Positions 14,302-32,541 of a stretch of 36,759 nucleotides of DNA are shown here, piece after piece (position 1 is the first letter of the stretch; every line of letters begins with the position of its first letter). Below the pieces are notes generated by a model, which saw nothing but the letters and a program-made list of their open reading frames with translations, searched no databases and was not told where the DNA came from. The DNA comes from Phycisphaerae bacterium (GTDB lineage: Bacteria > Planctomycetota > Phycisphaerae > Tepidisphaerales > Tepidisphaeraceae). The position numbers and the translations under genes were made by a program. The stretch covers positions 1 to 36,759 of the forward strand of contig JBGTBZ010000111.1 of assembly GCA_041749155.1 (NCBI GenBank), in the 5' to 3' direction.

Positions 14302-14331
14302 GGATGTGCCGCGCCCCGCCACCCTTATTCC
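14302..14331 (-). promoter_or_regulatory. Recurrent motif copy: GGAATAA-N15-GCACATCC, upstream of the thioredoxin-like gene
   Basis: The minus strand reads GGGAATAAGGGTGGCGGGGCGCGGCACATCCTTTCG, about 40 nt upstream of the ATG at 14263. Confidence 0.5.
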
Positions 14332-14795
14332 CCCGGGACTGGAGAAGCTCCCAGTGCGAAGGTCGGATGCAGCCGAAATTTATTCAAGCCAAAGCCCCGC
14401 AGCAGGAGGAGCTCGAGATCGTGCTGATTCGGAGGCAGCGACGGACCGATCCGGTTGGGGAGCAGGTCCAGCGACCGCGCGGCGTCGATTCCGTAGCCTC
14501 GATTCAACCTGCGGATGCCTCAATGCTCTCGCGGTAGACGTGACGCCCACGTTGTCTATCGACGTACTCTCCAGGTAACAGGCAGCGAAGCTACAAGTTG
14601 AACCTGATGGTCACGGTAAAACGCCGGCAGGTCCCCGTAGCCCTCGCGCAGGAGGATCGTGAGGTTTGTGCGAACCATTACCTCCAGCTCCTGCTGACGC
14701 GCGGCGGCGACGAATCGCCGCAAGTGCGGGGTCATCTCCGGGGCGCCCCCCGTGATATGGCCGACCTCAAAACGGAGAAAGAAGTTTATGCCTGG
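14325..14795 (-). pseudogene. arsS: Decayed internal fragment of a second arsS (radical SAM) copy
   Basis: My minus-strand translation gives ITGGAPEMTPHLRRFVAAARQQELEVMVRTNLTILLREGYGDLPAFYRDHQVQLVASLP / CYLE / VDRQRGRHVYRESIE / IRRLNRGYGIDAARSLDLLPNRIGPSLPPNQHDLE across at least 3 frames. This parallels ArsS residues ITGGAPEMHRHFRRF...LPPPQKQLE (19038..20042). The CxxxCxxC N-terminus and the Cys-rich C-terminus are absent. Confidence 0.7.
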
Positions 14796-14804
14796 CTATT
14801 GAGA

Positions 14805-15755
14805 CTACTGGTCAGGCGACTCGGCAGACACCTCGAAGTATCTCCCCCAGAGCGGCCGGAGCCGCGTGACCTCGCCGGGGTCGATCAGCCGCTTGTCGCT
14901 CCAGATTGACAGGCGTAAGGCGTCGCGGGCCGGGCATTTTGCCAGCTCATCGTGCCGATCAGACGTCATCCTGATCGCCCGCCGCAGCAGCGAGGTAGCG
15001 TTCGCCGTTGCCTGCTTCAGATTCGCAGTGATCTCGCTCAGCAACGCGAACGGGTCGTGCGTCGAAGGTGTACGCCACGAGTCGTAGTCCGTTACAAGGC
15101 AAACGGCCGCATAGGGCAGTTCCGCTTCCTTCGCGAGCTTCGCTTCGGGCATCAGCGTCATTCCGATCATGTCTCCACCCCACAGCCGATGCATTTTGCT
15201 CTCGGCACGGGTGCTGAAGGCGGGTCCTTCCATGCAGACGTAGCAACCGCCACCATGCGCGCGCAAGCCATCGATCTGAGTGGCCGCTTCGCGCAGGATC
15301 CCCCTCAGAATCGGGCAGAACGGCTCCGCCTGCTCCACGTGAACAGCGGAATTTTCGAAGAATGTCCCCACTCGGCCGAGAGTCTTATCAATCAGTTGAT
15401 CGGGAATCACCACATCCCCTGGCTCATATTTCTCGCGGAGGCTGCCGACCGCTCCGGATGCAAGAACGTGCGTGACGCCCAACTCCTTCAGCGCGAAAAT
15501 GTTGGCGCGATAAGGCACCTGCGAAGGATTGAGCAGATGCCCATGTCCATGCCGGCTCAGCAGAAGCACCGGCACGCCCTCAAGCTCCACCTCCAAGATG
15601 GGTGAGGAAGGCCTGCCGAACGGCGTCTGCGGTTTGAGCATGCGCGCGTCCTCTGCGCGGAACGTCTCGCCAAGTCCGCTCCCGCCGATGAGGGCGACCT
15701 TCAGGGGCGAGCTCGGATTGGTCGGTGCGCGGCTCATTGCCAGAAGGTTAGCCAT
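14805..15755 (-). CDS. mtnP: S-methyl-5'-thioadenosine phosphorylase (MTAP/PNP family)
   Basis: VALIGGSGLG, LLSRHGHGH, YRANIFALKELGVTHV, CMEGPAFSTRAES and GMTLMPEAKLAKEAEL. Confidence 0.85.
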   Translation of the reverse strand: MANLLAMSRAPTNPSSPLKVALIGGSGLGETFRAEDARMLKPQTPFGRPSSPILEVELEGVPVLLLSRHGHGHLLNPSQVPYRANIFALKELGVTHVLASGAVGSLREKYEPGDVVIPDQLIDKTLGRVGTFFENSAVHVEQAEPFCPILRGILREAATQIDGLRAHGGGCYVCMEGPAFSTRAESKMHRLWGGDMIGMTLMPEAKLAKEAELPYAAVCLVTDYDSWRTPSTHDPFALLSEITANLKQATANATSLLRRAIRMTSDRHDELAKCPARDALRLSIWSDKRLIDPGEVTRLRPLWGRYFEVSAESPDQ

Positions 15756-15837
15756 CTCGACGCCCCTCAGAGCCGCCCGCCTGGGGTTCGCCGGGGACGG
15801 CCAGCGCCGCAGCCGGCCACACCTCCGTGGTTACTGA

Positions 15838-16650
15838 TCAACAGGCTGGACGTACTTGCCCTGCTCTTGATGTCCGGGCCGATCGCTCGGACTCGCTTTC
15901 GCTAGGGTTCCAGGTTGCGTCTCGGTTCAGATTGAGCTTGTGCTGTCTCTGCGGCGAGGACCCTCCGGCGGATGCCCGGCGCGCATCCGCAAGTCGCGCC
16001 ACTTGAGTTTCAAGTCCGCGAAGCGATGGCCCGGCGGCTTGTAGCCGAACGCACGGAACTTGCCGGGCGGCACTCTGCCTTTCGCGCGGACGTGCGCTGT
16101 GAAGCGATCGACCCACGCATCGAAGTCACTCATGATCTTCGTCTCGTGGATCAAGTCCTCGGCCTGGTTGTGGGCGTAGGGCAGACCCACTCCGGTGTGC
16201 GATGCCATCCACAGCTCATCGGGAACTTCGATGCCGCTCCATCGGCACTGCAACACTAGCGGCGCGTAGGCATTGCGATCATCCTCCGATGGCCATTCCT
16301 CCGGACGGAACCACTCCTTGTGCCGGAGAATCTTCGGCCTCCCGCTCTCATCCATCTCGTTTGCTCCCTCGTCTCCATAGCTGAAGAATCCGGCGGTGCG
16401 GCCCTCGAGATGGTTGATGTTGATATCTTCCCACCGCGGCGGTTTTTCCAATCGCATCGCAAGTTCCGGGTTCTTGTGGTCGATCAGGTCTTCGTGCGTG
16501 AATGCGGCAGCTTCGAGTGTGCCCTGAGCATTCGCCAACCGTACGCCGAACTGATCGTTGGGAGGGCGGCATCAGCCGGATCGAATATCACTCGCGAGCC
16601 ACCAAGATAATCGGCGAGCGGTATATCTCCGCGGCCCGACAACGCGGTCG
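15838..16650 (-). pseudogene. Truncated, frameshifted tandem paralog of the flavoprotein at 16666..17748
   Basis: EDLIDHKNPELAMRLE ... HRFADLKLKWRDLRMRAGH aligns with the C-terminal 200 aa of the neighbouring gene. The tail (QHKLNLNRDATWNP) continues in another frame (ORF 15838..16116). The N-terminal FMN/Cys-cluster part is missing or scrambled (16539..16650). Confidence 0.6.
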
Positions 16651-16665
16651 GTGCATCGGCCGGCA

Positions 16666-17748
16666 TCAGGCCTCGCTGTCGGTGGCGGATTGTCGTTCGC
16701 GCTCGCTCCTGCCTGGCTTCCAGGTCGCGTCCTTGTTGAGGTTCATGTCATGTTGAATCCGTGGCGATGAACCCTTGGGCGCGTGACCCGCGCGCATGCG
16801 CAGGTCGCGCCACTTCAATTTTAGATCGGCGAAGCGGTGAGATGGCGTTTCGTAGCCGAACGCGCGGTACTTGCCGGGCGGCACCTTGCCCTTGGCGGCG
16901 ACGAACCGACCGAACTCATCGGTCCAGCTATCGAACAGCGTTAGCACCTTCGGTCGGAGCGGCAGGTGCTCCGCCTGATTGTCGCTGTACTTCTCATCCT
17001 TTCCGAACTCCGTGTAGCACCAGAGTCGGTCGGGAACCTCGACGCCGCCATACCGGCATTGCCACACAAGCGGGGCGTACGCATCGCGCATGTTCTCGAA
17101 AGGCTCTTGGTTGGGATCGAAATACTCCGGGTGCCGAAGTACAGTGGGACGGCCGGCCTCATCCAGTTCGTCGCCGCCGCCATCGCCGTAGCAGAAGAAC
17201 GCGGCAGTGCGACCCTCAAGGTGATTAACGCTTAATCCTTCCCACTCGGGAGCGTGTTCGAACTTCATCGCCAGTTCAGGGTTCTTGTGTTCGATCAGGT
17301 CTTCGCGCGGGTTGCCGCCGTTCATGCACACCAGGCGGTCGAACATCAGCTTGAGATTGCTCGAGGGGGCGTACCAGTTGATGGGGCCGATAATGGCCCA
17401 GGCGTCGGCCAAGTCGATGCGAGAGTAGAGATCAAGGTCCCACATGAGGTCGGGCTCGTCCTTGTTGTGTTTCTCGTAACAGTTGCACGGCCAGCAGCAC
17501 AAGGCCATCGATGTGGAGACGCATGAGTTGCAACTTTGGATGTGCGCGCGGGCATAGACATTGCCGAGGTCTTCAAGATCGATCTCCCAATCCTGCGGAA
17601 GGCGCTCGGCCATGCGCAGCATGAGCGTGCGGGATTTGGAATCGACGCCTGGGCAGTTGTACTGACGGCGATTGGAGCCGGAGATGATGAGCACACGGAA
17701 GGGGCGCTGATCAGGCGCGAGATGGCCGTTGGTATCGTTGGGTTTCAT
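16666..17748 (-). CDS. Flavodoxin-fold NAD(P)H-dependent FMN reductase-like protein with a Cys cluster (iron-sulfur flavoprotein-like)
   Basis: RVLIISGSNRRQYNCPG... and CNSCVSTSMALCCWPCNC, followed by AWAIIGPINWYAPSSNLKLMFDRL, typical of the FMN_red/Isf-like fold. Confidence 0.6.
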   Translation of the reverse strand: MKPNDTNGHLAPDQRPFRVLIISGSNRRQYNCPGVDSKSRTLMLRMAERLPQDWEIDLEDLGNVYARAHIQSCNSCVSTSMALCCWPCNCYEKHNKDEPDLMWDLDLYSRIDLADAWAIIGPINWYAPSSNLKLMFDRLVCMNGGNPREDLIEHKNPELAMKFEHAPEWEGLSVNHLEGRTAAFFCYGDGGGDELDEAGRPTVLRHPEYFDPNQEPFENMRDAYAPLVWQCRYGGVEVPDRLWCYTEFGKDEKYSDNQAEHLPLRPKVLTLFDSWTDEFGRFVAAKGKVPPGKYRAFGYETPSHRFADLKLKWRDLRMRAGHAPKGSSPRIQHDMNLNKDATWKPGRSERERQSATDSEA

Positions 17749-17778
17749 GCGACGACTCCTATTGCGCGCTTTGGCGAT

Positions 17779-18972
17779 TCATCGCTCCCGCTCTTTCGAA
17801 CTGGTCTGAGGCGCTTTGCGGCGTTTGGGGTTCTCGTAGGAAAAGTCGCGTGATTGGATCATATTCAGCGTTTCCTTGATCGAAGGGCGGTCACCCCAGA
17901 ACGTGCCGTAGTAGGCGAAGCGCACGATGCCCTCTGGATCGATGAGAATCGTTGATGGTCGATTGATGTATTCGGCATGCACCGCGAACGCCAGGGGATC
18001 GACGCCGTAGATGGCGCCGACCGCTCCGGCCCGATCGATCAGGTGAGGCCACCAGATTTGTTCGGCGTACGTCTTCTGAAACGACTCCTTGGCAAACCAA
18101 TACTTCGGGTCGATTTCCTTCCCGACCATGACGCGAGCGCGATAACGATCGTGGGCTTCGATCGTCGCGACATGTACGCCTGCCTCGGCGAACTCCTCGC
18201 GCATCTCGATCAGTTCGCGGAACTCGCCCTGGCAGACCGGGCACCAATCAGCGAACACCCATACGAGCGCCACCCACTGGCCCTTCGCGTCGCGCAACGA
18301 CCACGCTGATCCTTCAGTATGTGGCAACGTGAAATCGGGTGCTGCCTCGCCGACTCGTACTGCTTCGAACTTGCCCGGATCAAGTGACGCGTACGCGGCG
18401 CGCAACTCATCGGTCGCGCCCATCTTCTTCTGAATCTGATCGATCGACAGTTCGCACTGGTGCTGCACATCGCGCGATGAATCGTTGGCCATGCGTTCGC
18501 GCAACAGTTCAAGCGACCCGGTCGATTCGATCTGGCCCAACGCGATTGCCGCCTGCGAGCGCGCCAGGGCGTCGGCGTCGTCTCGCACAACCTTCTCCAG
18601 AGCCGGAATCGCATCTTTGGCTTTGAGGATGCCCAGTGCCATGGCGCACACGTATCGCACCTGAACATTCGGCTCCTGGAGTCCGGCCGCAATCTGCGGA
18701 ATCGCATCGTCACCGGCATGAACGAGATCGCGTACGGCCAATGTCCGCACCTTCCAGTCCGCATCATCAAGATCAGCGATGCCATGCTGCTTGAGGTCGC
18801 GATCGATGGTGAAACTCTTGCCATCCACCGGATGAAACGTGTGTCCGCGAACGCTTGCGAGCGCATTGCTGACGTCATTTGTTGTCGCGCCGGCGGGGCT
18901 TGGGGCTTGTGCGGCAACAATGGCCGAGCAGGCCAGAACGGCGGTGACTGATACGAGGCGAATTCCAATCAT
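17779..18972 (-). CDS. Secreted HEAT-repeat / peroxiredoxin (AhpC-TSA/redoxin) fusion protein
   Basis: Signal peptide, then HEAT-like repeats (DWKVRTLAVRDL..., NVQVRYVCAMALG..., ALARSQAAIALG...). The C-terminus has APDFTLPHTEGSAWSL...ALVWVFADWCPVCQGEF. Confidence 0.7.
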   Translation of the reverse strand: MIGIRLVSVTAVLACSAIVAAQAPSPAGATTNDVSNALASVRGHTFHPVDGKSFTIDRDLKQHGIADLDDADWKVRTLAVRDLVHAGDDAIPQIAAGLQEPNVQVRYVCAMALGILKAKDAIPALEKVVRDDADALARSQAAIALGQIESTGSLELLRERMANDSSRDVQHQCELSIDQIQKKMGATDELRAAYASLDPGKFEAVRVGEAAPDFTLPHTEGSAWSLRDAKGQWVALVWVFADWCPVCQGEFRELIEMREEFAEAGVHVATIEAHDRYRARVMVGKEIDPKYWFAKESFQKTYAEQIWWPHLIDRAGAVGAIYGVDPLAFAVHAEYINRPSTILIDPEGIVRFAYYGTFWGDRPSIKETLNMIQSRDFSYENPKRRKAPQTSSKERER

Positions 18973-19037
18973 ATGGCAACCTCCAGGGTTTTACGTGCTT
19001 CAACGCGGCGGCGGTGTTCGGGACCATGCCGTAATGA

Positions 19038-20042
19038 TCATGTCAATGCTCCCCCGCACGACGATCCGCTCCCCGCCGTGCAGCCGAAACAGTGCTCGCC
19101 CGTGGCGATCGCGCGGGTTCGCAGAGCTTCAATATCGAAGTTGTTGATATGGCGCGGCGCGGGACGATTGGTCGGCATCTTCAGCGCGTAGTTGAAATCA
19201 CAGTCGTGGAGCGTGCCGTCGTGGCTCACATGCACTTGGTGTCGGCACATCAGCGGCCCGATCGTCGCCGGATTGAACGCTTCCCGCAGCCGCTGCCGGT
19301 ACGCTTCGCCCTGTCCGTCGCGCTCGAGATCATGCTCAAAACGCCCAATCGGCATGTTCGTGATCGTCAGCAGACGCGTGAACCGGATGCCGAATTGCGC
19401 ATGCAGTTCCCTTCGATAGTCCGCCTCCAACTGCTTCTGGGGCGGCGGCAGCGACGGCCCCCCGGGGTTGTAAACAAGGTCCAACTCAAGATCGGGCTCT
19501 ACGCCGAAGCCCACCGCATTCAATCGCCGGATGACCTCGATGCTCCTTACGTACACGTGCCTGCCGCGCTGTTTGTCCACGTTCACTTCAAGATAGCAGG
19601 GCAGCGACGCGATCAGATGCACCCGGTGCGCGCGGAAGAACTCCGGCAGGTCCTCATACGCCGGCTCGAGCAGGATCGTCAGGTTGGTGCGAACGATGAT
19701 TTGGTGCCCTTGCCCGCGTGCATCGATGACGAACCGGCGGAAGTGCCTGTGCATCTCCGGCGCGCCGCCGGTGATATCGATGGTCGCGGCGCCGGCAGCC
19801 TGCGCCGCGTCGAGCACCATCAGCATCGTCTCCCAGGACATCTCCTCGCGGCGCTTCGGTCCGCTCTCGACGTGACAGTGATGACATGCCAAGTTGCACT
19901 TCAGGCCGATGTTCACCTGAATCGTTTCGAGATCTGCGGAGCGCAGCTCGGCCCCTGAGGCAGCTACCACCGCCTTTGAAAAAGCACGGCCATCCCGCTG
20001 GCCGGGTTGGACGCGCACGTGCAGTGAAAGTGATTGGCTCAT
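19038..20042 (-). CDS. arsS: Radical SAM/Cys-rich protein ArsS (arsenosugar-type)
   Basis: IGLKCNLACHHCHV (CxxxCxxC), ITGGAPEM, and the C-terminal HCFGCTAGSGSSCGGAL signature. The ATG at 20042 is preceded by GGAGG. Confidence 0.8.
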   Translation of the reverse strand: MSQSLSLHVRVQPGQRDGRAFSKAVVAASGAELRSADLETIQVNIGLKCNLACHHCHVESGPKRREEMSWETMLMVLDAAQAAGAATIDITGGAPEMHRHFRRFVIDARGQGHQIIVRTNLTILLEPAYEDLPEFFRAHRVHLIASLPCYLEVNVDKQRGRHVYVRSIEVIRRLNAVGFGVEPDLELDLVYNPGGPSLPPPQKQLEADYRRELHAQFGIRFTRLLTITNMPIGRFEHDLERDGQGEAYRQRLREAFNPATIGPLMCRHQVHVSHDGTLHDCDFNYALKMPTNRPAPRHINNFDIEALRTRAIATGEHCFGCTAGSGSSCGGALT

Positions 20043-20109
20043 CCCGGTAGACCTCCGCACCAAGCGAGGAGTTTAAGGGCATTTCCACAGGTCGACTATG
20101 CCAGCCGAC

Positions 20110-20139
20110 GGATGTGCGTCGCCTACACGGCACTATTCC
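20110..20139 (-). promoter_or_regulatory. Recurrent motif copy: GGAATAG-N15-GCACATCC, upstream of arsS
   Basis: The minus strand reads GGGAATAGTGCCGTGTAGGCGACGCACATCCGTCGG, about 65 nt upstream of the arsS ATG. Confidence 0.5.
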
Positions 20140-20185
20140 CGGTCGCGCTATTGGGCCAGACATATCGTTATCGGTGCCAGACTTG

Positions 20186-20215
20186 GGAATAACCGTCATT
20201 AAACGAGGCACACAC
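20186..20215 (+). promoter_or_regulatory. Recurrent motif copy: GGAATAA-N15-GCACACAC, upstream of ECF sigma 1
   Basis: The plus strand reads GGGAATAACCGTCATTAAACGAGGCACACACGTATC. It ends only about 7 nt before the GTG at 20222, which suggests a leaderless mRNA. Confidence 0.4.
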
Positions 20216-20221: not shown

Positions 20222-20827
20222 GTGACTCAGCAGCAAGGCCAGTACGAGCAATGGGTCACGGAGCACTCAGAGCCGCTTTACCGTCTCGCCGCCCGGTTGT
20301 GCGGCAACGCCGATGCGGCCGAGGATCTCGTGCAGGAGACGTTTTATCACGCCTGGCGCTCGATGGCCTCTCTGCGCGAGCCTGATCGCGCCAGGGGATG
20401 GCTGTTTCGCATCCTGCGCCGTCGATATTCCCGATGGCTGCGCGACCAGACGCGGCGGCTCGATCGGATCGGCACGACTGATTCGGCATTTGTCGCGGAC
20501 AAAGCCGCGAGCGACGGGCAACCAGGCGCGGCGATGGAGCGCGAGGAGTTGCTTCAAAGGGCGCTGGAAGTGCTTGAGGAGAGGTATAAGCTGCCTCTGC
20601 TGCTCGTATTCCTTGTGGGCATGACATTCCAGGAGGCGGCCGACTCCCTTGACCTGCCGCTGGGAACGGTGCTCTCGCGGGTTCATCGGGCGCGCCAGCA
20701 GATCCGGCAGCAGTTCGATACCGAAAGGTCCGGCATTCGGCTCGTTGGGGATTCCGTCGCTGCCATGGCCCCCGCGGACGAAGCGCGGCACCCGCACGCG
20801 CGCCGGCAGACTGGAGGGATCGCATGA
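20222..20827 (+). CDS. ECF-type RNA polymerase sigma factor (sigma 1)
   Basis: AEDLVQETFYHAWRS (region 2) and MTFQEAADSLDLPLGTVLSRVHRARQQI (region 4). I chose the GTG start at 20222. The 20114 start would add a non-sigma leader that overlaps the promoter motif. Confidence 0.8.
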   Translation: MTQQQGQYEQWVTEHSEPLYRLAARLCGNADAAEDLVQETFYHAWRSMASLREPDRARGWLFRILRRRYSRWLRDQTRRLDRIGTTDSAFVADKAASDGQPGAAMEREELLQRALEVLEERYKLPLLLVFLVGMTFQEAADSLDLPLGTVLSRVHRARQQIRQQFDTERSGIRLVGDSVAAMAPADEARHPHARRQTGGIA

Positions 20828-21681
20828 ACTCACACATATCCAGCGAGGCATATCTTCAGGAGTTGCGCAATCGGATGGAGGAGGTGGCAGCCCTGCCTTC
20901 GAATCACCCCGACCGGCTCGCGATGCTGGAGCACATCAGCCGCATCGGCGGGTCGATCGAGGCTGAATGGCTGGCCTTGCTCCGCTTTGACGAGGAGTTG
21001 CGGATCCAGCTCAGCAGAGTGGTAGTCCCCTCCGGAATGCGGTCGCGACTGCTGGAGATTCCCAGACGCGCCAGCGGACATCGTCGCGTGCGACTTCTCG
21101 GGCCGTTTCTAGAGCTGCTGCTCGGTCCGCGACGCCTGGCGGTCGCCGCCTCCTTGGGCGTGATCGTTTTCCTGGCACTGGCCGTTGCCGCCTGGAAGAA
21201 TGACAATCTCCACGAGTTTGCGGCGCTGGCGGTGGCTGCCCACGCAAGCCAGCCGGAACTGGCATTGGTAACGGACGACTGGGAGCTTGTTCGAGCTTCA
21301 TATCGCGAGCAGATGCCGATCGACCCGCTCCGACCAAAGCCCCCCTCACACTGGACCCTGATTGGCGCGCGGTTGACCAACTTCGACGACCGGGCAGTAC
21401 TCTACAGCCGATGGACCGACGGCGATCGCACCTATTCGCTCAGCGTTTACTGCGCTGAACAGTTCCGACTGCCGCGGCAGTCGGAGCAGAGAGAACTGAT
21501 ACCGCGATTGCTTGGTGAGGAGTCGGGGCGCAGAGTGGTCTTCTGGTCTGACCGGCATTGCGACTATGTGCTGGTCGTGGATGACGCGACGGTGCCGGTG
21601 CATCGATTCGATGCGCAAGCGGAATCTGAGAGCGTGGTCGCATCGGTGTTCGTCGAGCCGAGGCATCTGCTTCCAATCTGA
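20824..21681 (+). CDS. Putative single-pass membrane anti-sigma factor
   Basis: ATGA overlap with sigma 1, and one TM segment (LAVAASLGVIVFLALAVAAW). The call rests on position only. Confidence 0.5.
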   Translation: MNSHISSEAYLQELRNRMEEVAALPSNHPDRLAMLEHISRIGGSIEAEWLALLRFDEELRIQLSRVVVPSGMRSRLLEIPRRASGHRRVRLLGPFLELLLGPRRLAVAASLGVIVFLALAVAAWKNDNLHEFAALAVAAHASQPELALVTDDWELVRASYREQMPIDPLRPKPPSHWTLIGARLTNFDDRAVLYSRWTDGDRTYSLSVYCAEQFRLPRQSEQRELIPRLLGEESGRRVVFWSDRHCDYVLVVDDATVPVHRFDAQAESESVVASVFVEPRHLLPI

Positions 21682-21704: not shown

Positions 21705-22865
21705 TCAGGCGCTCTGAAACAGCGCTGCCACGACAGCAGCCATGAGAGCTGCCGCAGGAAGCGTCACCACCCAGGAGAGCAGGATGTCGCGCACTCTTGC
21801 CCATGCAACGGCTCGCGGATCGTGTCGCAGCCCGGCGCCGACGATCGCGCCGGTTGCTACGTGGGTCGTACTCACGGGCAGTGAGTTCCACGACGCCAGG
21901 CTGACGAGCGATGCCGTCGCCAGACTGGCCGTCAGCGAATGGCCCAGCGGCAGCGGTGTGATCTTCATCGCCAGCGTCTCCAAGACGCGAGGCCCCGCGA
22001 AAAGGCCGCCGAGTTGCATCACGACGGCCACCATGCCGAAACTGACCACGGCCGATGTATCCGCATCAACGCCGCCCAGCGTCATGCCGGCGACGCCTAA
22101 CGCTGCGATCTTCGGGGTGTCGTTCCACCCTCGGGCGAAACCGACCAGGCCGCTGCTAGACCAGTGGATCGCGTTAGCGGCCCGCGAGGTCGTGAGAACG
22201 AGTTCGGCAACTCCACGTTCGACGAGGGGGGTACAGGCCGCCTCTGAATCGATGAATACCCGCGCGTCAATCGCCGGCGGCTGGCCGGCCCCGGATGCCT
22301 GCACCTTGGCTACTGCGACCGGGATCGGCTGCATACCGGCCGGCGAGAGGCAAATACATCGCTGAGCCCAGTGCCGGACCATCCACATGACGGGGAGCGA
22401 CGCCGCATAGACCGTTGCGAGCGAAAGCAGTGGCCCCAGCGCCAGCGGGAGCGAGAGTGTGGTCCCAAGAACAGCCCACTGCACGCTTGCCCCGCCAAAC
22501 ACCACCAGCCCCGCCCCCGTGAGCGCGCCCACCAGAGAATGGGTGGTGGAGACAGGAAGCCCGAGGCGCGTGGCGGCCAGCACCCATCCTGCCGCGCCCG
22601 CCGCCACCGAGAGCAAGAACCCCAGGCCAATGGTTGTGCCGGTCATGAACCACCCTGTGCTGAAGCTCTTGACGAGCCCTCCGGCCACGAAGAATGCGAC
22701 AACTGCCCCGGCAAACGTACTCGCAGCGGCCCAGGCCAGAGCCGCGGATGGACGCGCCGCGCCGTGACCGACGAGCGTCGCCACACCCTTGCAGTTATCA
22801 TTCGCGCCATTAGCAAATGCCACGGCGGCGACCAGTGCGAGCAATATGAGGAGCGTTATACTCAT
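21705..22865 (-). CDS. PiT/PHO4-family inorganic anion (phosphate/arsenate-type) permease
   Basis: A polytopic protein with two GANDxxK/GWND repeats (FANGANDNCKGVATLVG and FARGWNDTPKIAALG). Confidence 0.7.
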   Translation of the reverse strand: MSITLLILLALVAAVAFANGANDNCKGVATLVGHGAARPSAALAWAAASTFAGAVVAFFVAGGLVKSFSTGWFMTGTTIGLGFLLSVAAGAAGWVLAATRLGLPVSTTHSLVGALTGAGLVVFGGASVQWAVLGTTLSLPLALGPLLSLATVYAASLPVMWMVRHWAQRCICLSPAGMQPIPVAVAKVQASGAGQPPAIDARVFIDSEAACTPLVERGVAELVLTTSRAANAIHWSSSGLVGFARGWNDTPKIAALGVAGMTLGGVDADTSAVVSFGMVAVVMQLGGLFAGPRVLETLAMKITPLPLGHSLTASLATASLVSLASWNSLPVSTTHVATGAIVGAGLRHDPRAVAWARVRDILLSWVVTLPAAALMAAVVAALFQSA

Positions 22866-22921
22866 TGCTGAGGGTGGCGCCAGCTACCGAACGGGCCGGC
22901 CCCCTCGGGTACCGTTGTGGC

Positions 22922-24079
22922 TCAGCAACACCCCTCTGGGCCGCAGCAGGCAGTTTCCTCAGTCGTAGCCTCGTACCCGGCCCCCTTGCTCTGCCGCGGG
23001 TGGCGGACCGCGCTGCGCCGACAGTCGAACGGCTTCGCTTCGTCCAACGGGATCGCCTCGCGCGGCTCGATGAACGCCAACTGCTCGGAATACGGCTCGC
23101 GGCGGAAGAGGTTGAAGGTCTTGTCGCACACAGCCATGCGCTGGCCCCGCACGAGCGTGTGGCCATCGTCGTCGGTCACCTTCTGCCATGGCCCCAGGTA
23201 AACGACGGCCTGATTGCGCTCAAGACACGGGCCCTCTTTGCCCTTGTACGCCGCCACCGTGACGCTGCGGAACTCGATGCCGCGAATTGTCTGCCACGGC
23301 TCGGCCGCGCGCTCAAGTATGCTCATGCCATGAAAGCCGGCCTCCTCGAAGGCCTTCAGAAATCCGGTCTCGGTCATCGCACCGCTGATACAACCGCTCC
23401 ACAAGCTCGGGTCTTCCTGCAGATCATGCGGCACAAGCTCGTCGGAGACAATGTCGCTGATAACGCAGCGGCCGCCGCGCCGCAGCACGCGGAACATCTC
23501 CGCGAAGAGCTGCTGCTTCTGCGCCGTTTCTACGAGGTTCAGAACGCAGTTTGACACGACAACGTCAATACTCTGGTTCGGAATCATCGGGTGGTGCCGG
23601 CGCAGTAACTCGGCATGCTCCTGGGTGGCAAGGTACCTGTCGGCCGAGTCCGCCGGCTTCTCTCGGAGATGCTCCTCCAGCCTCTCCAGGTCGAGTGCAA
23701 GATCTTGAATCCTGCCCTTGCGGAACTCTACATTGTCAAAGCCAAGCCGCCGCGCAATCTCCTGCTGGTGCTTTCGCGCCAGCGCCAGCATCGGCGTGTT
23801 GAAGTCCACGCCGATGACGCGACCGGCCGGCCCGATCTTCTGCGCGCAGATGTAGCAAGCCTTCCCGCTGCCGCTGCCGAGATCCAGGACGGTCTCGCCC
23901 TCCTCGACGAATCGACTCGGATCGCCGCACCCATAGTCCCGCTCAACGATTTCCTGCGGGATTGCCGCCAGGTAGCGCGAATCATATGCGTTGCTCGGAA
24001 CGCATAGGCAGGGCTCGGTTCGGCGGCCTGCCTCCGCGTAGCGCTGGCGAACGGATGCCTCTTGGACGTCTGACAGCAT
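22922..24079 (-). CDS. arsM: SAM-dependent methyltransferase, arsenite methyltransferase (ArsM)-like
   Basis: EIVERDYGCGDP, VLDLGSGSGKACYICA, GVDFNTPMLALARK and a Cys-rich tail ACCGPEGCC. Confidence 0.65.
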   Translation of the reverse strand: MLSDVQEASVRQRYAEAGRRTEPCLCVPSNAYDSRYLAAIPQEIVERDYGCGDPSRFVEEGETVLDLGSGSGKACYICAQKIGPAGRVIGVDFNTPMLALARKHQQEIARRLGFDNVEFRKGRIQDLALDLERLEEHLREKPADSADRYLATQEHAELLRRHHPMIPNQSIDVVVSNCVLNLVETAQKQQLFAEMFRVLRRGGRCVISDIVSDELVPHDLQEDPSLWSGCISGAMTETGFLKAFEEAGFHGMSILERAAEPWQTIRGIEFRSVTVAAYKGKEGPCLERNQAVVYLGPWQKVTDDDGHTLVRGQRMAVCDKTFNLFRREPYSEQLAFIEPREAIPLDEAKPFDCRRSAVRHPRQSKGAGYEATTEETACCGPEGCC

Positions 24080-24169: not shown

Positions 24170-24199
24170 ATATGTGCGATGTTTCGCCGCTCCTATTCC
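24170..24199 (-). promoter_or_regulatory. Recurrent motif copy: GGAATAG-N15-GCACATAT, upstream of the arsM-like gene
   Basis: The minus strand reads GGGAATAGGAGCGGCGAAACATCGCACATATAGG, in the 166-nt gap between merA and arsM. Confidence 0.45.
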
Positions 24200-24245: not shown

Positions 24246-25676
24246 TCACTCGGCGCAGCACGACAGCTTCGCGGGGTCCTTGTACCGGGAGATCGCCACG
24301 ATCTTCAGCGCCTCGGCCATCGTGGGGTAGACGTGCAGCAGGTCGATGATGTCCTGCAGCCGAGCGCGGAACCGCATCGCCATCGCCGCTTCGTGAATGA
24401 CCTCGCCGGCGTTGTGGCCGACCATTGACACGCCCAGCACTTCGTTGGTGTGCGCATCGGCCACCATTTTGATGAGGCCGCGCGTGTCGCGGATCGCGCC
24501 CGCGCGCGGCACCAGCGACATCGGCACGGTGCTGCACCAGCACTCGTGGCCCGCCGCGGTGGCTTGCTCTTCCGTCATTCCAACCAGCGCCACTTGTGGA
24601 TCGGTGAAGATGACGCGCGGGATGACGCGGTGGTCCACGGCCCGAAGCTCGCCGCCGGCAACCGCATTGCGGGCGGCGATGCCGCCATGGCGGCCTCCGA
24701 CCGGTGTCGCCATCTGGCTGCCGTGCTGACGACCGATCACGTCGCCAGCGGCGAAAATGTGAGGCATGTTGGTTTGCAGGTGCTCGTTCACCTCGATTTC
24801 ACCATCCCCGTTCATCGCCACGCCGGAGCGCTCGATCGCGATATTGTCGGTGTTCGGACGCCGGCCGGTCGCGATCAGCAATCTCTCAGCCCGGTATTGG
24901 CGTTCCTTTGCGCCGACCGTCGCGGTCATCACCACCGCATCTTGTTCTTGCCGCACAGCACGGACCGTCGCTCTGGTGACAATCTGAATGCCCTCTTCGG
25001 CGAACACTTCGCCGATGCTGAGGCCCACTTCCGGCTCGTAGCCGTGGGCCAAGAGCTGCGTGTTGCGGTCGATGATCGTCACTTCGGTGCCGAAGCGGCT
25101 GAACATCTGCCCAAGTTCCAGCGCGATGTATCCGCCGCCAACGATGATGAGCGACTTGGGCAACTCGCGCAGTTCGAGCGGCTCATCGACGGTGAGCAGA
25201 TCGCTGGTGAGGTATGGCACGCGATCCAACCCTTCGATCTTGGGGATGACCGGGCGCGAGCCGGTGGCGATCAGCACCTTTTCGCCGCTCAGCCGCTTGC
25301 CGTTGACCTCAACCGTGTTGGAGTCCACGAACTCGACATGACCTTCTTGGATGCTGAACTGGCCGCCCACAAGGCTCTCATATTTCTTCTTGCGGTAGTC
25401 GTGAACGACTTGATCTTTCTGCGCGATGAGCGCGGCGAAATCGAGTGTGATTTCGCAAGGCGTCAGGCCGGGATAGCGGGGGTTGCGGGCGTCGTGGATG
25501 AGTTTGGCGGCTTCGATGAGATTTTTGGAAGGCAGACAGCCGCGATTAACGCAGGTGCCGCCGATCGGGCGCTCTTCGGTCATCGCGGCGGTCTTGCCCA
25601 ACTCCTGCGCGGCCAGGGCGGCGGCGAAGGCGGTGGAGCCGGAGCCGAGAATGAGAAGATCGAAGTTGTCAGTCAT
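24246..25676 (-). CDS. merA: Mercuric reductase MerA core (no NmerA domain)
   Basis: [12 protein letters not shown], the redox pair [13 protein letters not shown], and the diagnostic C-terminal Cys pair ...KLSCCAE. Confidence 0.8.
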
Positions 25677-25703
25677 GCTTCATGCCCTTCCGACTGGCGA
25701 TTG

Positions 25704-26294
25704 TCAGTAAACGAGGACGGTGTCCGCTTCGGCGCTGAGCCGCACGACATCGGCATACGTGGCGGGGATCACGTACGGGTGGCGTGGCGGAGACTGCTTC
25801 ACCTTGTCGGCCTCTCCGGTGACGATGAGCATCGCCGTGTTTGCGTACACGCGCGCCCCGCGCTTGTGCAGTAAGTCGAGGTACGCGCCGTAATCGTCCG
25901 GCATCTCATCGAGGGGCAGGTGCATCTGTGAGGCGATCACCTTTTTCAGACGCTCCGGTACGCCGGTGCTGGCCAGATTGCTGTCCAAGTCGAGGGTCGC
26001 GCCTGCGTCGAACAACACGGTCACATCCGCGCCCGCTTCGAGGGCCGCGAAGACCGTGTTGAATCCGACGCAGATCTGGCTGTCGTCCTGTTTCAGGCCC
26101 GTCTTGAAGTGAAACAGGACATGCTTGCCTTTCACCGCCGAGGCGAGCTCCGCGGGGGATGGGAATTCCTCACTGTAGGTGCGATCGAGGTGGCGCCACT
26201 TGGCGAGCTTGGCCGCGAATCTGTATCCAAAGTACCCGCCGACGCCAAGGATCAGTACCGCTGCCACGATGAGCATAACCTTCCACGTGCGCAT
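25704..26294 (-). CDS. Membrane-anchored DsrE/DsrF-like-fold protein (function uncertain)
   Basis: N-terminal TM helix, then HVLFHFKTGL...VGFNTVFAALEAGADVTVLFDAGA..., a DsrE-like alternation. The assignment is weak. Confidence 0.4.
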   Translation of the reverse strand: MRTWKVMLIVAAVLILGVGGYFGYRFAAKLAKWRHLDRTYSEEFPSPAELASAVKGKHVLFHFKTGLKQDDSQICVGFNTVFAALEAGADVTVLFDAGATLDLDSNLASTGVPERLKKVIASQMHLPLDEMPDDYGAYLDLLHKRGARVYANTAMLIVTGEADKVKQSPPRHPYVIPATYADVVRLSAEADTVLVY

Positions 26295-26304
26295 CGTGTG
26301 ATCC

Positions 26305-26940
26305 TCATTGTTGTGGTTCGACAGATGACGGATAGCCGGCCTCCGCCGTCGCTTGCGTCAGCGCAGCCACGGAAGTCTTCGCCGGGTCGTAGTTCACGAC
26401 GGCGTGCGGCGGGTCGAGCGTGACCTTGGCATCCTGCACGCCCTCAACGTTCATGAGACTGCGACGGACATTGGCGGTGCAGGCGGCGCAGGTCATTCCT
26501 TGAACGTTCAACACGGCTTGTTCGGCATTCATGTAAGTTGCCTCGATCGAATTGTCTTGCGCAAACAGACGCGGAGCGAAATAGGGAAAGGCGAGCAAAG
26601 CAAGGATCAGCGGCGTGATGATCCACAGCGCGATCCGATTGATTCGCTTGGCGCGCGGCACGGCACATGAACCGTTCGGTCCACATTTCGCCCCAACCGG
26701 CTTGCGGTAGGCGCGATAGAAGCCAAACCCCAGGAACGCCACGGCCATGATGATGAACAGCGGACGATAGGGCTCAAGAGCAGTCAGACTGCTGGCCCAA
26801 GCGCCGCCAACTCCAAGTGTCAGCAGGACCAGCGGCCCCAGGCAGCAGATTGACGCCGCGATCGCGCCCACCACTGCGCCCAGCAGACTCCATCGCTCGG
26901 TTGCTCGCTGATTGCCTTGGTTGATCGTTTGATCGCTCAT
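26305..26940 (-). CDS. merT: MerT-like mercury transporter fused to a MerP-like HMA domain
   Basis: First-TM Cys pair AIAASICCLGPLVL, a second Cys pair in the loop, and the C-terminal HMA motif VQGMTCAACTANV. The ATG at 26940 is preceded by GGAG. Confidence 0.8.
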   Translation of the reverse strand: MSDQTINQGNQRATERWSLLGAVVGAIAASICCLGPLVLLTLGVGGAWASSLTALEPYRPLFIIMAVAFLGFGFYRAYRKPVGAKCGPNGSCAVPRAKRINRIALWIITPLILALLAFPYFAPRLFAQDNSIEATYMNAEQAVLNVQGMTCAACTANVRRSLMNVEGVQDAKVTLDPPHAVVNYDPAKTSVAALTQATAEAGYPSSVEPQQ

Positions 26941-27060
26941 GTCGATGATCTCCGGCCCGTCTCCAGTGCTTCCAACAGTGGGCACGAATGCGGGCGGTGC
27001 TTGCCGCCCGGCAAGCTACTTCGGTCGGACTCCTTCATCTTCGTCGCGGCCCGCGGGACC

Positions 27061-27134
27061 AGCGCTTCCGGAGGTTACCTGTCATTCTCCACATAGGAGT
27101 GCCGGTCTAGGCAGGATTATTCCGAGCCGTTGAA
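27061..27134 (-). repeat. 74-nt repeat copy R1 (contains motif GGAATAA-N14-GCACTCCT on the minus strand, 27095..27123)
   Basis: AGCGCTTCCGGAGGTTACCTGTCATTCTCCACATAGGAGTGCCGGTCTAGGCAGGATTATTCCGAGCCGTTGAA differs from 31276..31348 by one indel and two substitutions. Confidence 0.85.
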
Positions 27135-28925: not shown

Positions 28926-28947
28926 ATCACTCACTTCTGGAGGAAGC

Positions 28948-29799: not shown

Positions 29800-29915
29800 C
29801 CTACTGCCCGCTGGGCTCGGCCAGTTTTCGTGCCGGACTCCTCACCCCGAGTCGGTCCCGCAGCGTTGCACGGAATGCAGCGCTGCGGTGACCGGCTGAG
29901 CCGCTGGAGCCAGTG

Positions 29916-30269
29916 ATGAAAGTAGCCGTTGTACTGCTCGCTGACACGAATACTCCAGAAGCGATGGGACGAATGGCCAACGCCCTGATGGTCGTTCGCG
30001 AGCTGAAGGAGTCGGGCGAAGACGTCCGCCTGATCCTGGACGGAGCGGGCGTGAAGTGGGTGAGCCACTGGCTGGATCAGGACTCGCAATACGGTGCTCT
30101 ATTCCTGGAGGTTCGCGACCGGCTTGCAGGAGTCTGCCGATACTGTGCCAATGCGTACGGCGTGGCGCAGAGGATTGAGGCCGCCGGCTTCCCGTTCGCC
30201 GACCAATACAAACAGCATCCGAGCTTTCGAGCGATGATCGCTGAGGGTTACCAGATCATCACCTTCTGA
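29916..30269 (+). CDS. DsrE-family small protein
   Basis: MKVAVVLLADTNTPEAMGRMANALMVVRELKESGEDVRLILDGAGVKW. The ATG at 29916 lies 7 nt after GGAG. Confidence 0.55.
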   Translation: MKVAVVLLADTNTPEAMGRMANALMVVRELKESGEDVRLILDGAGVKWVSHWLDQDSQYGALFLEVRDRLAGVCRYCANAYGVAQRIEAAGFPFADQYKQHPSFRAMIAEGYQIITF

Positions 30270-30291
30270 GCGGGCGTGATCTGCTGGGATC

Positions 30292-30307
30292 GGCAGCGCA
30301 AGCTGCC
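30292..30307. terminator. GGCAGC-GCAA-GCTGCC hairpin between convergent genes
   Basis: Perfect 6-bp GC-rich stem with a GCAA loop, between the DsrE stop (30269) and the anti-sigma stop (30352). There is no U-tract. Confidence 0.3.
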
Positions 30308-30351
30308 CTGCCGCCAACTCCCTGTTGAGTGTTCCGCGGCACATTGGCGGC

Positions 30352-30603
30352 TCAGCCCCGGTAGGCCTTTGCAAGGCTCGCGCGGATTCGATCTTTGGCG
30401 GAGTCGGACAGCCGCGCATCGCACGGGAAGGAGTGGCGGCCCCAGAGGCGCAGCAGCGCGTGAAGAGCCTCGATTTGCCTTTGATATTGGGAGCAGGCAG
30501 AGCACCTGGCCAGGTGCAGGCGCAGACTCCATGATTGCCAAAGGGTCAGCCGGGTATCAAGACGTTTGGATACGAGCTCGGCAGTTTGGCGGCAGGTAAG
30601 CAT
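30352..30603 (-). CDS. Small soluble zinc-binding anti-sigma factor (ZAS, HxxxCxxC)
   Basis: MLTCRQTAELVS...LRLHLARCSACSQYQ is a zf-HC2 motif. No TM segment, about 83 aa. The start overlaps the sigma 2 stop (TGATG). Confidence 0.7.
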   Translation of the reverse strand: MLTCRQTAELVSKRLDTRLTLWQSWSLRLHLARCSACSQYQRQIEALHALLRLWGRHSFPCDARLSDSAKDRIRASLAKAYRG

Positions 30604-31211
30604 CAGACTGGCTTCTGCGGATGGCGTTGGAACCAGAATCGTTCGAGACATTCACGCAGTCGAGCTCTTGCGCGGTGAAGCGTGACCCAAAGATTGGTCG
30701 GAGAGAGGCTCAGGGACTTACAGGTTTCTTCCGCGGTAAGTTCGTCAAGTACCCGCAAACTGAAGGCGGCACCCTGTCGTTCCGGCAGCTTTTTCAAGCA
30801 ACTCGAAAAGACCTGCCAGAATTCTGACTTGGCCACCAGTTCCTCGGGCTCGATGCTCCAATCGCCCGGTCGATGGACCCATGCGCCGGCAGAGTCAAAT
30901 AGCCCCTCAATCGGATCGTCCGACGTCATTTCGGGAACCTGACGCCGCATCCGTTGCCTGTGCCAATCGGCGATCTTCCGGCGCAAGATGGCGAGCATCC
31001 ACGTCTGTTCAGACGAACGCTCTTCGAATCGGCTCCGGCTCATCAGCGCCGCCAGAAACGTCTCTTGCACCAGATCCTCTGCGACCGTCTTGTCGCGGAC
31101 TCTCGTGACGGCGTAGCGGAAGAGAACGTCCCCGTACACGTCAAGCCAACTGAGCGGGTCTGCTTGCGCAGGCTGCGGATGCGATGCCACGTTATGTATT
31201 TGCGGTGCCAT
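30603..31211 (-). CDS. ECF-type RNA polymerase sigma factor (sigma 2)
   Basis: AEDLVQETFLAALMSRSRF (region 2) and LTAEETCKSLSLSPTNLWVTLHRARARLRECL (region 4). Confidence 0.85.
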   Translation of the reverse strand: MAPQIHNVASHPQPAQADPLSWLDVYGDVLFRYAVTRVRDKTVAEDLVQETFLAALMSRSRFEERSSEQTWMLAILRRKIADWHRQRMRRQVPEMTSDDPIEGLFDSAGAWVHRPGDWSIEPEELVAKSEFWQVFSSCLKKLPERQGAAFSLRVLDELTAEETCKSLSLSPTNLWVTLHRARARLRECLERFWFQRHPQKPV

Positions 31212-31275
31212 CGTGGATGCGTGGGGTTTGTCCTGTGCCTCGCCAATAACGAGGCGTCCGGAGCCGGCACAGGCA

Positions 31276-31348
31276 AGCGCTTCCGGAGGTACCTGTCATT
31301 CTCCAAATAGGAGTGCCGGTCTGGGCAGGATTATTCCGAGCCGTTGAA
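31276..31348 (-). repeat. 74-nt repeat copy R2 (contains motif GGAATAA-N14-GCACTCCT on the minus strand, 31309..31337)
   Basis: AGCGCTTCCGGAGGTACCTGTCATTCTCCAAATAGGAGTGCCGGTCTGGGCAGGATTATTCCGAGCCGTTGAA lies 65 nt upstream of the sigma 2 ATG. Confidence 0.85.
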
Positions 31349-31680
31349 TAGGCGTGTGCCCCCGACGGAACGTTCCTTTCTTTCACTTGACGCAGCAACC
31401 TGCGCGTCGCTGCTGGGGTCACTCGACCCGCAAAGGCTGGGCCGCCCGAGCTACTGCGCTCACCTACTTGTGATTCCGGCGGCACCGTCGATACCACAAA
31501 AAAGAGGGGAATAGGACGCGGGGCTCAGACCACTAGCCTGCAGCGACCCTAGCCAGTGTGTATTGCTGCGCGCTTCGCCTGACCGGCGGGAACGACGCAG
31601 AGGAGCGGGTACGATTCTCGAATACTCCAATGCACGGCGACGCGCGCCGGCCCTCGCACCACTTCTTCGTGTCTACCCCC

Positions 31681-32457
31681 ATGCTTTCCATCGTGATACC
31701 TACGCTGAACGAGGCCGGTTCGCTGCCGGCCACGGTGGAGCACACCCGCACCGCGGCCAAGGGCGCTGACGTGGAGATCATCGTCAGCGATTGCCGCAGC
31801 AGCGACGGCACGGCCGAAGTGGCGCAGGCGCTGGGACTACGGATCGTTGGCGGCGGCGGATCTCGGGCCGAGGCGATGAACGCCGGGGCGAGCGCCGCCG
31901 ACGGGGAGACTTTGCTGTTCCTGCATGCAGACTGCCGGCTCCCGGCAGGCTTTCCGCACCGCATCTGGCGGGCCCTCGAGAATCCGGGGATCGTCGGTGG
32001 CGCCTTTGACTTCGAGTTCGCGGACGACCCGCAGGCGGGGTGGGTTGCCCTCGAGTGTCTGCGGTGGGTCGTGTTCGGCAATCGCATCCGCTATCGCTGG
32101 ACCGGCGCGTTTTACGGCGACCAGTGCATCTTCGTCCGCCGCGAGGTGTTCTCGAAGCTGCGCGGCTTTCCCCGCGTGCGCCTGATGGAAGACGTGCGCT
32201 TCTCACGCAGGTTGAATGGCGCCGGCCGTACAGCCATCCTTCGCCCCCCCGTGCTTGCCTCGCCGCGGCGCTTCCTGAGCCGGGGCGTCGTCCGTCAAGT
32301 TCTAAGAGATTTGGCGCTGCTGGGCAGCGAGAGCATCGGTGTCTCCCCCGGAACCTGGTGGGCGCAGTACAACGGCTGGAACAGGAGCAACGGCGCTTCG
32401 GCACCCCCCGCCGAGGCACACTCGGATCCGCGCCGTTTACGTTGTGTTCGGGAATAA
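31681..32457 (+). CDS. Family 2 glycosyltransferase, TIGR04283-type (rSAM/arsenosugar-associated transferase 2)
   Basis: MLSIVIPTLNEAGSL, IVSDCRSSDGT, LLFLHADCRLP and YGDQCIFVRREVF. I chose the ATG at 31681; the 31558 extension has no GT similarity. Confidence 0.7.
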   Translation: MLSIVIPTLNEAGSLPATVEHTRTAAKGADVEIIVSDCRSSDGTAEVAQALGLRIVGGGGSRAEAMNAGASAADGETLLFLHADCRLPAGFPHRIWRALENPGIVGGAFDFEFADDPQAGWVALECLRWVVFGNRIRYRWTGAFYGDQCIFVRREVFSKLRGFPRVRLMEDVRFSRRLNGAGRTAILRPPVLASPRRFLSRGVVRQVLRDLALLGSESIGVSPGTWWAQYNGWNRSNGASAPPAEAHSDPRRLRCVRE

Positions 32458-32511
32458 GAGTCCACTGCTCCGTTGGAAACAGGTCCATTGCCTAGTGGCT
32501 TGGATTTCCTT

Positions 32512-32541
32512 GGAATAAAACCTCAGCGACCGGCAACCTCT
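32512..32541 (+). promoter_or_regulatory. Recurrent motif copy: GGAATAA-N14-GCAACCTC, upstream of the secreted protein gene
   Basis: The plus strand reads TTGGAATAAAACCTCAGCGACCGGCAACCTCTTTG. It shares GACCGGCA at the same offset as R1/R2. Confidence 0.45.

Follow-up and report, generated by a model that had tools for sequence, protein, structure and literature searches.

A GGAATA(A/G)-N14-GGCAC motif upstream of arsenic, mercury and thiol-protection genes in a Phycisphaerae contig is the probable promoter of an extracytoplasmic function sigma factor

The DNA considered here, called the window, is the whole of contig JBGTBZ010000111.1 (36,759 nucleotides (nt), assembly GCA_041749155.1) from a Phycisphaerae bacterium of the Tepidisphaeraceae. 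It contains genes for two extracytoplasmic function (ECF) sigma factors, referred to as sigma 1 and sigma 2, among genes for arsenic, mercury and thiol chemistry. A two-part motif, GGAATA(A/G) followed 14 nt or 13 nt later by a box of the type (G/C)GCAC, recurs upstream of both sigma genes and of other genes in this cluster. Most probably the motif is the promoter sequence recognised by sigma 1, a so far uncharacterised member of the ECF factors that would drive seven or eight promoters in the window.

A search for the pattern GGAATAR-N14-15-GCAM gave seven matches where 0.03 were expected, and none of 100 shuffled sequences contained as many; this count covers the one contig alone. These are the seven copies listed in an earlier sequence-only reading, which had their coordinates and strands correct. 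As that reading also claimed, each copy is oriented towards the gene downstream of it and all seven lie in intergenic DNA, which makes up 15% of the window. Its statement that the motif is missing from the defence island was likewise borne out by a matrix scan, in which positions 1-14000, island included, held no site scoring at least 12 bits. The word GGAATAR alone was found 11 times against 2.6 expected, and three further occurrences (8152, 30105 and 32451) lack the second box. A scan for the sigma-70 consensus found one site against 3.2 expected and was uninformative.

Reading one further base divides the seven sites into two spacing classes. The sites of the thioredoxin-like gene, arsS, sigma 1 and arsM read GGAATAR-N14-(G/C)GCAC, and those of merT, sigma 2 and a secreted protein read GGAATAA-N13-GGCA(C/A). 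The motif is asymmetric and contains no dyad. In the frame that we propose from these letters, GGAATA(A/G) would be the -35 box and (G/C)GCAC a -10 box starting 14 nt, less often 13 nt, after it. Written in the manner used for SigH promoters the motif is GGAATA-N17-CAC.

Pfam and NCBIfam were used for the gene calls, which agree with those of the sequence-only reading, and co-transcription was judged from strand and tight spacing, so that the operons given here are probable ones. The first site, P_trx (14302..14331, minus strand), has GGAATAA at 14331-14325, N14 and GGCAC at 14310-14306; it scores 22.4 bits, and the ATG of a thioredoxin-like gene follows 42 nt downstream. The probable unit behind it (9385..14263, minus) has four genes, encoding a secreted thioredoxin-like protein with the sequence WCASC (13763-14263), a DUF3179 protein (12667-13752), a VTT/DedA-DUF547 protein (11009-12631) and a pyridine-nucleotide disulphide oxidoreductase (9385-10965). 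P_arsS (20110..20139, minus; GGAATAG, N14, CGCAC at 20118-20114; 14.6 bits) precedes a probable unit of five genes (14805..20063, minus). These encode a radical-SAM ArsS-like protein with DUF3641 (19038-20063), a HEAT-AhpC/TSA protein (17779-18972), an FMN_red fusion (16666-17748), a 203-residue protein of no known type (15927-16538) and, last in the unit, a PNP_UDP_1 phosphorylase (14805-15755). Divergent from P_arsS is P_sig1 (20186..20215, plus strand; GGAATAA at 20186-20192, N14, GGCAC at 20207-20211; 22.4 bits), followed by the gene for the 201-residue sigma 1 (protein P0001; 20222..20827, plus) and by a gene for a 285-residue protein (20824..21681, plus), the start of which overlaps the sigma 1 stop codon.

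The remaining sites lie further along the contig. P_arsM (24170..24199, minus; GGAATAG, N14, CGCAC at 24178-24174; 14.6 bits) is followed 94 nt downstream by the ATG of arsM, whose probable unit (21705..24079, minus) comprises genes for an ArsM-like methyltransferase (22922-24079) and a PHO4/PiT transporter (21705-22865). The best NCBIfam match of the methyltransferase is methyl_ArsM, at 350 bits (cutoff 500), and is thus a match at family level only. P_merT (27095..27123, minus; GGAATAA at 27123-27117, N13, GGCAC at 27103-27099; 22.5 bits) stands before a probable unit of three genes (24246..26985, minus) for a fusion of MerT and HMA domains (26305-26985), a membrane-anchored 196-residue protein of no known type (25704-26294) and MerA (24246-25676; TIGR02053, 512 bits against a cutoff of 454). 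P_sig2 (31309..31337, minus; GGAATAA at 31337-31331, N13, GGCAC at 31317-31313; 22.5 bits) is 101 nt upstream of the ATG of sigma 2 (30603-31211, minus), an ECF sigma factor resembling TIGR02943 (159.2 bits against a cutoff of 162.2). The gene after sigma 2 (30352-30603, minus) encodes its probable anti-sigma factor, a soluble 83-residue protein of the zinc type (ZAS) matched by NF052368 antisigmaE at 59.1 bits against a cutoff of 50. P_secr (32512..32541, plus; GGAATAA, N13, GGCAA at 32532-32536; 15.5 bits) lies 157 nt upstream of a gene for a secreted 206-residue protein (32694-33314, plus), after which come CMD (33484-34071) and AhpC/TSA (34061-34669) genes on the same strand. P_secr is regarded as the weakest of the seven because CAA replaces the otherwise invariant CAC.

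Two weaker copies had been proposed in addition, with different outcomes. The one before a family-2 glycosyltransferase (GT2) gene, P_GT2 (31508..31537, plus; GGAATAG, N14, ACCAC), scores 13.9 bits, just under the seven, and is a plausible candidate given that GCCAC variants occur at the sigma promoters of loci L015, L020 and L024, described below. The GT2 gene is called at 31558-32457 (plus) but its real start is likely to be the ATG at 31681. The copy proposed before the DsrE gene (29872) was rejected as a site since it has no CAC box and scores less than 12 bits.

P_merT and P_sig2 are not independent of each other because they lie inside one direct repeat of 59 nt (27076-27134 and 31290-31348, 97% identity). 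If one indel is allowed, the duplicated cassette is about 75 nt long and its copies are roughly 96% identical (27050-27134 and 31265-31348, minus strand). It takes in promoter and leader, beginning 11 nt before the -35 box and running on for about 45 nt after the -10 box. The remaining five sites have nothing in common except the two boxes. An RNA element in the duplicated leader was considered and rejected, as the merT and sigma 2 leaders fold no better than shuffled sequences (z-scores 0.44 and -1.64) and an Rfam scan of the window gave no match.

Phylogenetic footprinting of autoregulatory upstream motifs is a standard route to ECF promoters (PMC7776599). A scan with one genome per species gave 79 loci, and 43 orthologues of sigma 1 (41-54% identity) were compared. 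With a matrix made from the seven window sites only, applied to 230 nt of upstream DNA at a threshold of 12 bits, 34 of the 43 orthologues had a site, as against 2 of 141 control windows taken from the same loci. More distant ECF genes had one in 5 of 33 cases, and sigma-2-family genes from metagenomes in none of 73. By eye, GGAATAA...GGCAC is present directly upstream of the sigma gene in most of the loci L002-L043, and a strict regular expression found it in 28 of the 43, with a spacer of 14 nt in 25 and 13 nt in three; the 13-nt spacing is seen at the sigma 1 orthologue promoters of L006, L012 and L033. The proposal of a candidate ECF regulon, made from the window by itself, is supported by this comparison.

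The same result was obtained in the other direction. A matrix made only from foreign sites upstream of sigma genes returned the seven sites as the top seven of the window, all of them at 14 bits or more where the null mean was 0.6; the next matches were P_GT2 and then one intragenic match at 13.6 bits. Alignment of 31 foreign sites gave more than 0.5 bit only at GGAATAA, at GGGCAC and, weakly, at a GTGR that follows the C of CAC at a distance of 10-13 nt. In a search that allowed spacers of either length, 29 of these sites had 14 nt and two had 13 nt. The consensus for the sigma 1 family is GGAATAA-N14(13)-GGCAC. Since the boxes are conserved while the spacers between them are unrelated, the conservation appears to be functional and not the result of recent common descent. 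Boxes of the type GGAAT(A/G) then CAC, with the same spacing, were also observed at three ECF genes with no more than 32-39% identity to sigma 1, at L053 and L063 (both metagenome-assembled genomes, MAGs, of Gammaproteobacteria) and L077, and this type of promoter therefore reaches beyond the Planctomycetota.

The targets, as well as the sigma gene, recur in relatives. In the two closest relatives, L160 and L162, the thioredoxin-like gene is divergent from a string of sigma 1, the 285-residue protein and DUF3179, with a GGAATAR-N14-GGCAC site facing each way. In 11 loci the sigma 1 orthologue has a thioredoxin-like gene no more than about 2 kb away, and in L005, L010, L011, L014 and L015 it adjoins DUF3179, which is preceded by the motif in L010 and L011. 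Besides the window, L003, L006, L012 and L021 have arsenic genes beside the sigma gene, L006 and L012 being near-identical. In that pair the motif precedes arsM at 22.4 bits (GGAATAA-N14-GGCAC in L006) and the arsS orthologues at 22.0 bits (GGAATAG-N14-GGCAC). The arsM gene of L003 has cGAATAA-N14-TGCAC, the TGCAC variant being identical to that in the sigma promoter of the same locus. In L021 the motif, at 22.4 bits before a sigma 2 orthologue, precedes a string of sigma 2, ZAS, peroxiredoxin, arsM, PHO4 and arsS, in which the order arsM-PHO4-arsS is that of the window. GT2 genes are found near the sigma 1 orthologues of L006, L008, L011, L012 and L038. Taken together, the recurrence of these genes points to a conserved core of sigma factor, putative anti-sigma factor, secreted thioredoxin-like protein and DUF3179.

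Sigma 1 itself consists, according to Pfam, of Sigma70_r2 and Sigma70_r4_2 only, that is, of regions 2 and 4. It scores 83 bits with TIGR02937 (cutoff 42.9), and no narrower NCBIfam model passes its cutoff. The nearest solved structures are those of SigE and SigH of Mycobacterium tuberculosis. In the alignment of homologues (A1) a stretch in the C-terminal part, PLGTVLSR-HR, is invariant, which is consistent with the invariant -35 box. Homologues are 45-57% identical, and the few that are named come mostly from MAGs of Planctomycetota, for example Phycisphaeraceae. Relatives are found mainly in the Planctomycetota, including Phycisphaerae and Tepidisphaerales, and the family also occurs in MAGs labelled Glassbacteria, Nannocystaceae and Gammaproteobacteria. 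One member (L020) belongs to Candidatus Uabimicrobium amorphum, of which the complete chromosome is available. As the GTG start at 20222 is 10 nt from the -10 box of P_sig1, the sigma 1 mRNA may be nearly leaderless. This would not be a conserved property since the leaders of L160 and L162 are about 50 nt long. A separate observation concerns the C-terminal tail of the family, R-L-R-L-G-G-G-A, which resembles the C-terminus of ubiquitin. [RK]-L-G-G was seen in 17 of 30 homologue tails and GG among the last five residues in 23 of 30. The window sigma 1 ends in TGGIA, and proteins of the multiubiquitin, ThiF/E1-like, DUF6791 and DUF6527 types are encoded elsewhere in the window (1063-4203).

A gene for a 285-residue membrane protein like that at 20824..21681 is found downstream of the sigma 1 orthologue in 32 loci. 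The protein has a predicted membrane-spanning helix (single-pass), gave no Pfam or NCBIfam match, and contains neither a conserved cysteine nor an HxxxCxxC motif. An AF2 model, for which four sequences were usable (pLDDT 57), has four helices at the N-terminus, then a long one at residues 109-142 and a beta domain, and Foldseek gave weak matches of this model to RseB/MucB (E about 4e-3, TM about 0.25). On the basis of its position and of this model, the protein is a putative membrane anti-sigma factor of sigma 1.

The presence of a second ECF sigma gene with its own copy of the motif raises the question of which sigma factor reads it. Sigma 2 is 31% identical to sigma 1. It might read the sites in part or altogether, for instance the N13 subclass with sigma 1 reading the N14 subclass, giving two autoregulated regulons with overlapping motifs, and the two classes do differ in sequence as well as spacing (N14 with GCACAT; N13 with GGCACTCCT or GGCAACCTC). 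Overlapping specificity of related ECF factors is known for SigH and SigE (PMC10012870). We nevertheless consider this unlikely. The 13-nt spacing is also present at the autoregulatory promoters of the sigma 1 orthologues in L006, L012 and L033, and the C-terminal region of sigma 2, TNLWVTLHRAR, differs from the GTVLSRVHRAR of sigma 1. Given that none of the 73 sigma-2-family genes carries the motif upstream and that many have a different one in common, GATTTGCTAC...CTAcTCTACTGG, the motif would belong to the sigma 1 family.

The upstream motif of these TIGR02943-like genes, which come from soil and other metagenomes, has roughly the form GATTTGCTAC, then 13-16 nt, then CTA(A/C)TCTACTGG, and was seen at L083, L092, L093, L098, L102, L110, L111, L115, L120-L124 and L133. 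It is probably the autoregulatory promoter of the sigma 2 family, and its words were not found at the promoters of the window.

The sequence-only reading had remarked that a copy of the motif at each of the two sigma genes fits autoregulation. For sigma 1 this agrees with the sites at its orthologues. For sigma 2 it does not stand, since genes of that family elsewhere never carry the motif, and P_sig2 is more likely to be the target of a cascade from sigma 1 to sigma 2. The arrangement in L005, where a sigma-2-like gene lies within the sigma 1 operon, suits such a cascade and is consistent with a position of sigma 2 downstream of sigma 1. The ZAS protein has C4-x25-H30-x3-C34-x2-C37, as read from its sequence, and no membrane segment, and could therefore add a cytoplasmic thiol checkpoint.

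Operons for arsenic and mercury resistance are normally controlled by ArsR and MerR, and the -24 box of sigma-54 promoters is TGGCAC. The boxes could for these reasons be the site of a conventional factor (ArsR, MerR or another metalloid sensor), or GGCAC could be a sigma-54 -24 box with GGAATAA as the site of its activator. Either is very improbable: an operator would have to be reconciled with a motif that has no dyad, keeps a strict orientation to its gene and accompanies the gene for sigma 1 from phylum to phylum, and no MerR- or ArsR-type domain was found among the window open reading frames scanned. A sigma-54 promoter needs GC 10 nt after the GG, whereas a C at +11 from the C of CAC is present in only 2 of the 31 foreign sites, and no sigma-54 activator gene was seen. 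That the copies have no regulatory meaning, being due to chance or left behind by a duplicated segment spread around the cluster, is hardly credible, for although the merT and sigma 2 copies are such a cassette and the cluster has scars of rearrangement, including an arsS pseudogene fragment, the other five sites are alike in the two boxes only, 0.03 matches were expected, and the same boxes with unrelated spacers stand at orthologous genes in unrelated genomes.

Assignment of the motif to sigma 1 also has to face a number of points that weigh against it. Two of the seven sites, those of merT and sigma 2, are a recent duplicate, those of arsS and arsM read CGCAC and reach only 14.6 bits each, and that of the secreted protein reads CAA where CAC is otherwise invariant. 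A -10 box of GGCAC is unlike the CGT or GTT usual for ECF factors. Nine of the 43 sigma 1 orthologues score below 12 bits, and variants of the first box are present, GAAATAA or GGAAATA in L014 and L031 and GAAATAA at the partial sigma 1 homologue of L067. The GTG at 20222 is the choice of the gene caller and implies a nearly leaderless mRNA, and the anti-sigma factor is named as such from synteny and from a model of poor quality (pLDDT 57). More generally, the case for a sigma 1 regulon is one of sequence conservation, from which we infer everything further, namely the binding of sigma 1, the transcription starts, the extents of the operons, the inducing signal and the cascade.

If sigma 1 is indeed the factor concerned, GGAATA(A/G) would be read as the -35 box by its region 4 and (G/C)GCAC as the -10 box by its region 2. 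In the resting state sigma 1 would be sequestered by the co-transcribed membrane anti-sigma factor (20824-21681) until freed by an envelope signal, for which thiol-reactive or metalloid stress is our guess. RNA polymerase with sigma 1 would then fire the operon of sigma 1 itself, giving positive feedback. It would also fire the trx-DUF3179 unit with the genes following it, the arsS operon, arsM-PHO4, merT-merA, the sigma 2/ZAS operon and the secreted protein gene, the last perhaps with CMD and AhpC, and perhaps GT2. Sigma 2 would form a second tier gated separately by the small cytoplasmic ZAS anti-sigma factor.

A bolder version, which we regard as possible but doubtful, is that in a lineage of Phycisphaerae/Tepidisphaerales a two-tier ECF cascade replaces ArsR and MerR. 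The anti-sigma factors would then be the direct sensors of the thiophilic As(III) and Hg(II), which might for instance displace zinc from the Cys3-His site of the ZAS protein. Arsenic methylation, arsenosugar synthesis, mercury reduction and thiol repair would in that case be induced together from GGAATAA-N14-GGCAC promoters.

The kind of system, an autoregulated ECF regulon, is already known, and the closest parallel in promoter sequence is with SigH/SigR of group ECF12 (SigH of Corynebacterium glutamicum, SigR-RsrA of Streptomyces coelicolor and SigH of M. tuberculosis). Promoters of C. glutamicum SigH read GGAATA-N17-GTT, and GGAATAA is found at that of trxB1 (PMC10012870). The -35 box and the spacing are the same as in the window motif, and both regulons are rich in genes for thioredoxins and thiol protection. 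The triplet in the -10 box, however, is CAC and not GTT throughout the 31 aligned foreign sites and at six of the seven sites of the window. With the ECF12 promoter GGAAT-N18-GTT the motif thus agrees in -35 box and spacing and differs at -10. An RsrA-like signature, C-x25-H-x3-C-x2-C, is present in the window in the ZAS protein, which is paired with sigma 2. The partner of sigma 1 is a predicted membrane protein without conserved cysteine, in contrast to the soluble adjacent ZAS of ECF12. Sigma 1 scores 76 bits with TIGR02947 SigH_actino, below the cutoff of 251.55. The hosts differ too, the sigma 1 family being found in Planctomycetota and other Gram-negative phyla and SigH/SigR in Actinobacteria.

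In group ECF26 (RpoE1 and RpoE4 of Sinorhizobium meliloti, sulfite response) the cross-species boxes are GGAATA at -35 and CGTC/GT at -10, and there are similarities in the -35 box, in the autoregulated promoters and in the 1-bp variation in spacing between promoters (PMC6180224, PMC6527743). The -10 box here is GGCAC and not CGTC, which departs from the ECF26 promoter. HrpL (ECF32) recognises the hrp-box GGAACC-N15-16-CCACNNA in the control of type III secretion and is itself sigma-54 dependent and not autoregulated. It offers an example of an ECF promoter with CAC replacing CGT in the -10 box, although its -35 box GGAACC, its hosts and its regulon are different.

In output the window resembles operons under ArsR and MerR, with the same arsM, merT and merA, but there is no arsR or merR gene in the open reading frames scanned and no dyad operator. 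Control here appears to be exerted through the promoter selectivity of an alternative sigma factor in place of ArsR or MerR. CnrH-CnrYX (nickel and cobalt) and CorE/CorE2 (copper, and cadmium or zinc; ECF238) likewise place an ECF factor over metal-resistance genes (for CorE/CorE2, PMC7826278). Sensing in these systems is different, relying on the periplasmic CnrX or on an extension rich in cysteine at the C-terminus of the sigma factor, and the promoters differ as well. To our knowledge, none of them controls ars or mer genes.

What sets the present system apart is a -10 box of an unusual kind, membership in a so far undescribed family that has its centre in the Planctomycetota, and the outputs arsM, arsS and merT-merA, which are normally under ArsR and MerR. 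Literature on GGAATAA with ECF factors, and on ECF factors with arsenic, mercury or Planctomycetes, yielded no description of the sigma 1 family. GGAATAA-N14-GGCAC would be a concrete promoter model for this uncharacterised family of ECF sigma and anti-sigma factors, in the groups that carry it, from which we know of almost no promoters, and would enable regulons to be predicted in MAGs. It suggests that an alternative sigma factor can govern a mer operon and the genes for arsenic methylation and arsenosugars in place of ArsR or MerR repressors. This, if true, would bear on forecasts of the conditions under which planctomycetes in the environment methylate arsenic or reduce mercury. A -10 box with CAC for GTT, combined with a SigH-like -35 box and spacing, would be a natural variant of specificity and could aid work on ECF orthogonality.

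Some further features of the cluster were observed. Between the phosphorylase gene and P_trx lies a degraded arsS pseudogene fragment (14412-14741, minus), 49% identical to residues 102-213 of ArsS and with stops and a frameshift inside, which indicates rearrangement of the cluster. The PNP_UDP_1 phosphorylase itself (14805-15755, minus) is a candidate for the removal of adenine from the 5'-deoxy-5'-dimethylarsinoyl-adenosine made by ArsS, a reaction that would come next in the making of arsenosugars. The 203-residue protein (15927-16538) has a paralogue in the C-terminal half of its neighbour, the FMN_red protein (16666-17748), with 70-73% nucleotide identity between 15960-16498 and 16771-17309 at a constant offset of 811 nt. 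The 196-residue protein encoded between merT-HMA and merA (25704-26294, minus) has an N-terminal membrane anchor, gave no Pfam or NCBIfam match, and is DsrE-like by eye near VLFHFKTG...VTVLFDAGA. The defence-type island, which has no copy of the motif, occupies positions 1-9010 and includes the multiubiquitin/ThiF/DUF6791/DUF6527 set (1063-4203) and a DarT-HD gene (6782-8197) with a Macro-domain partner (5487-6785).

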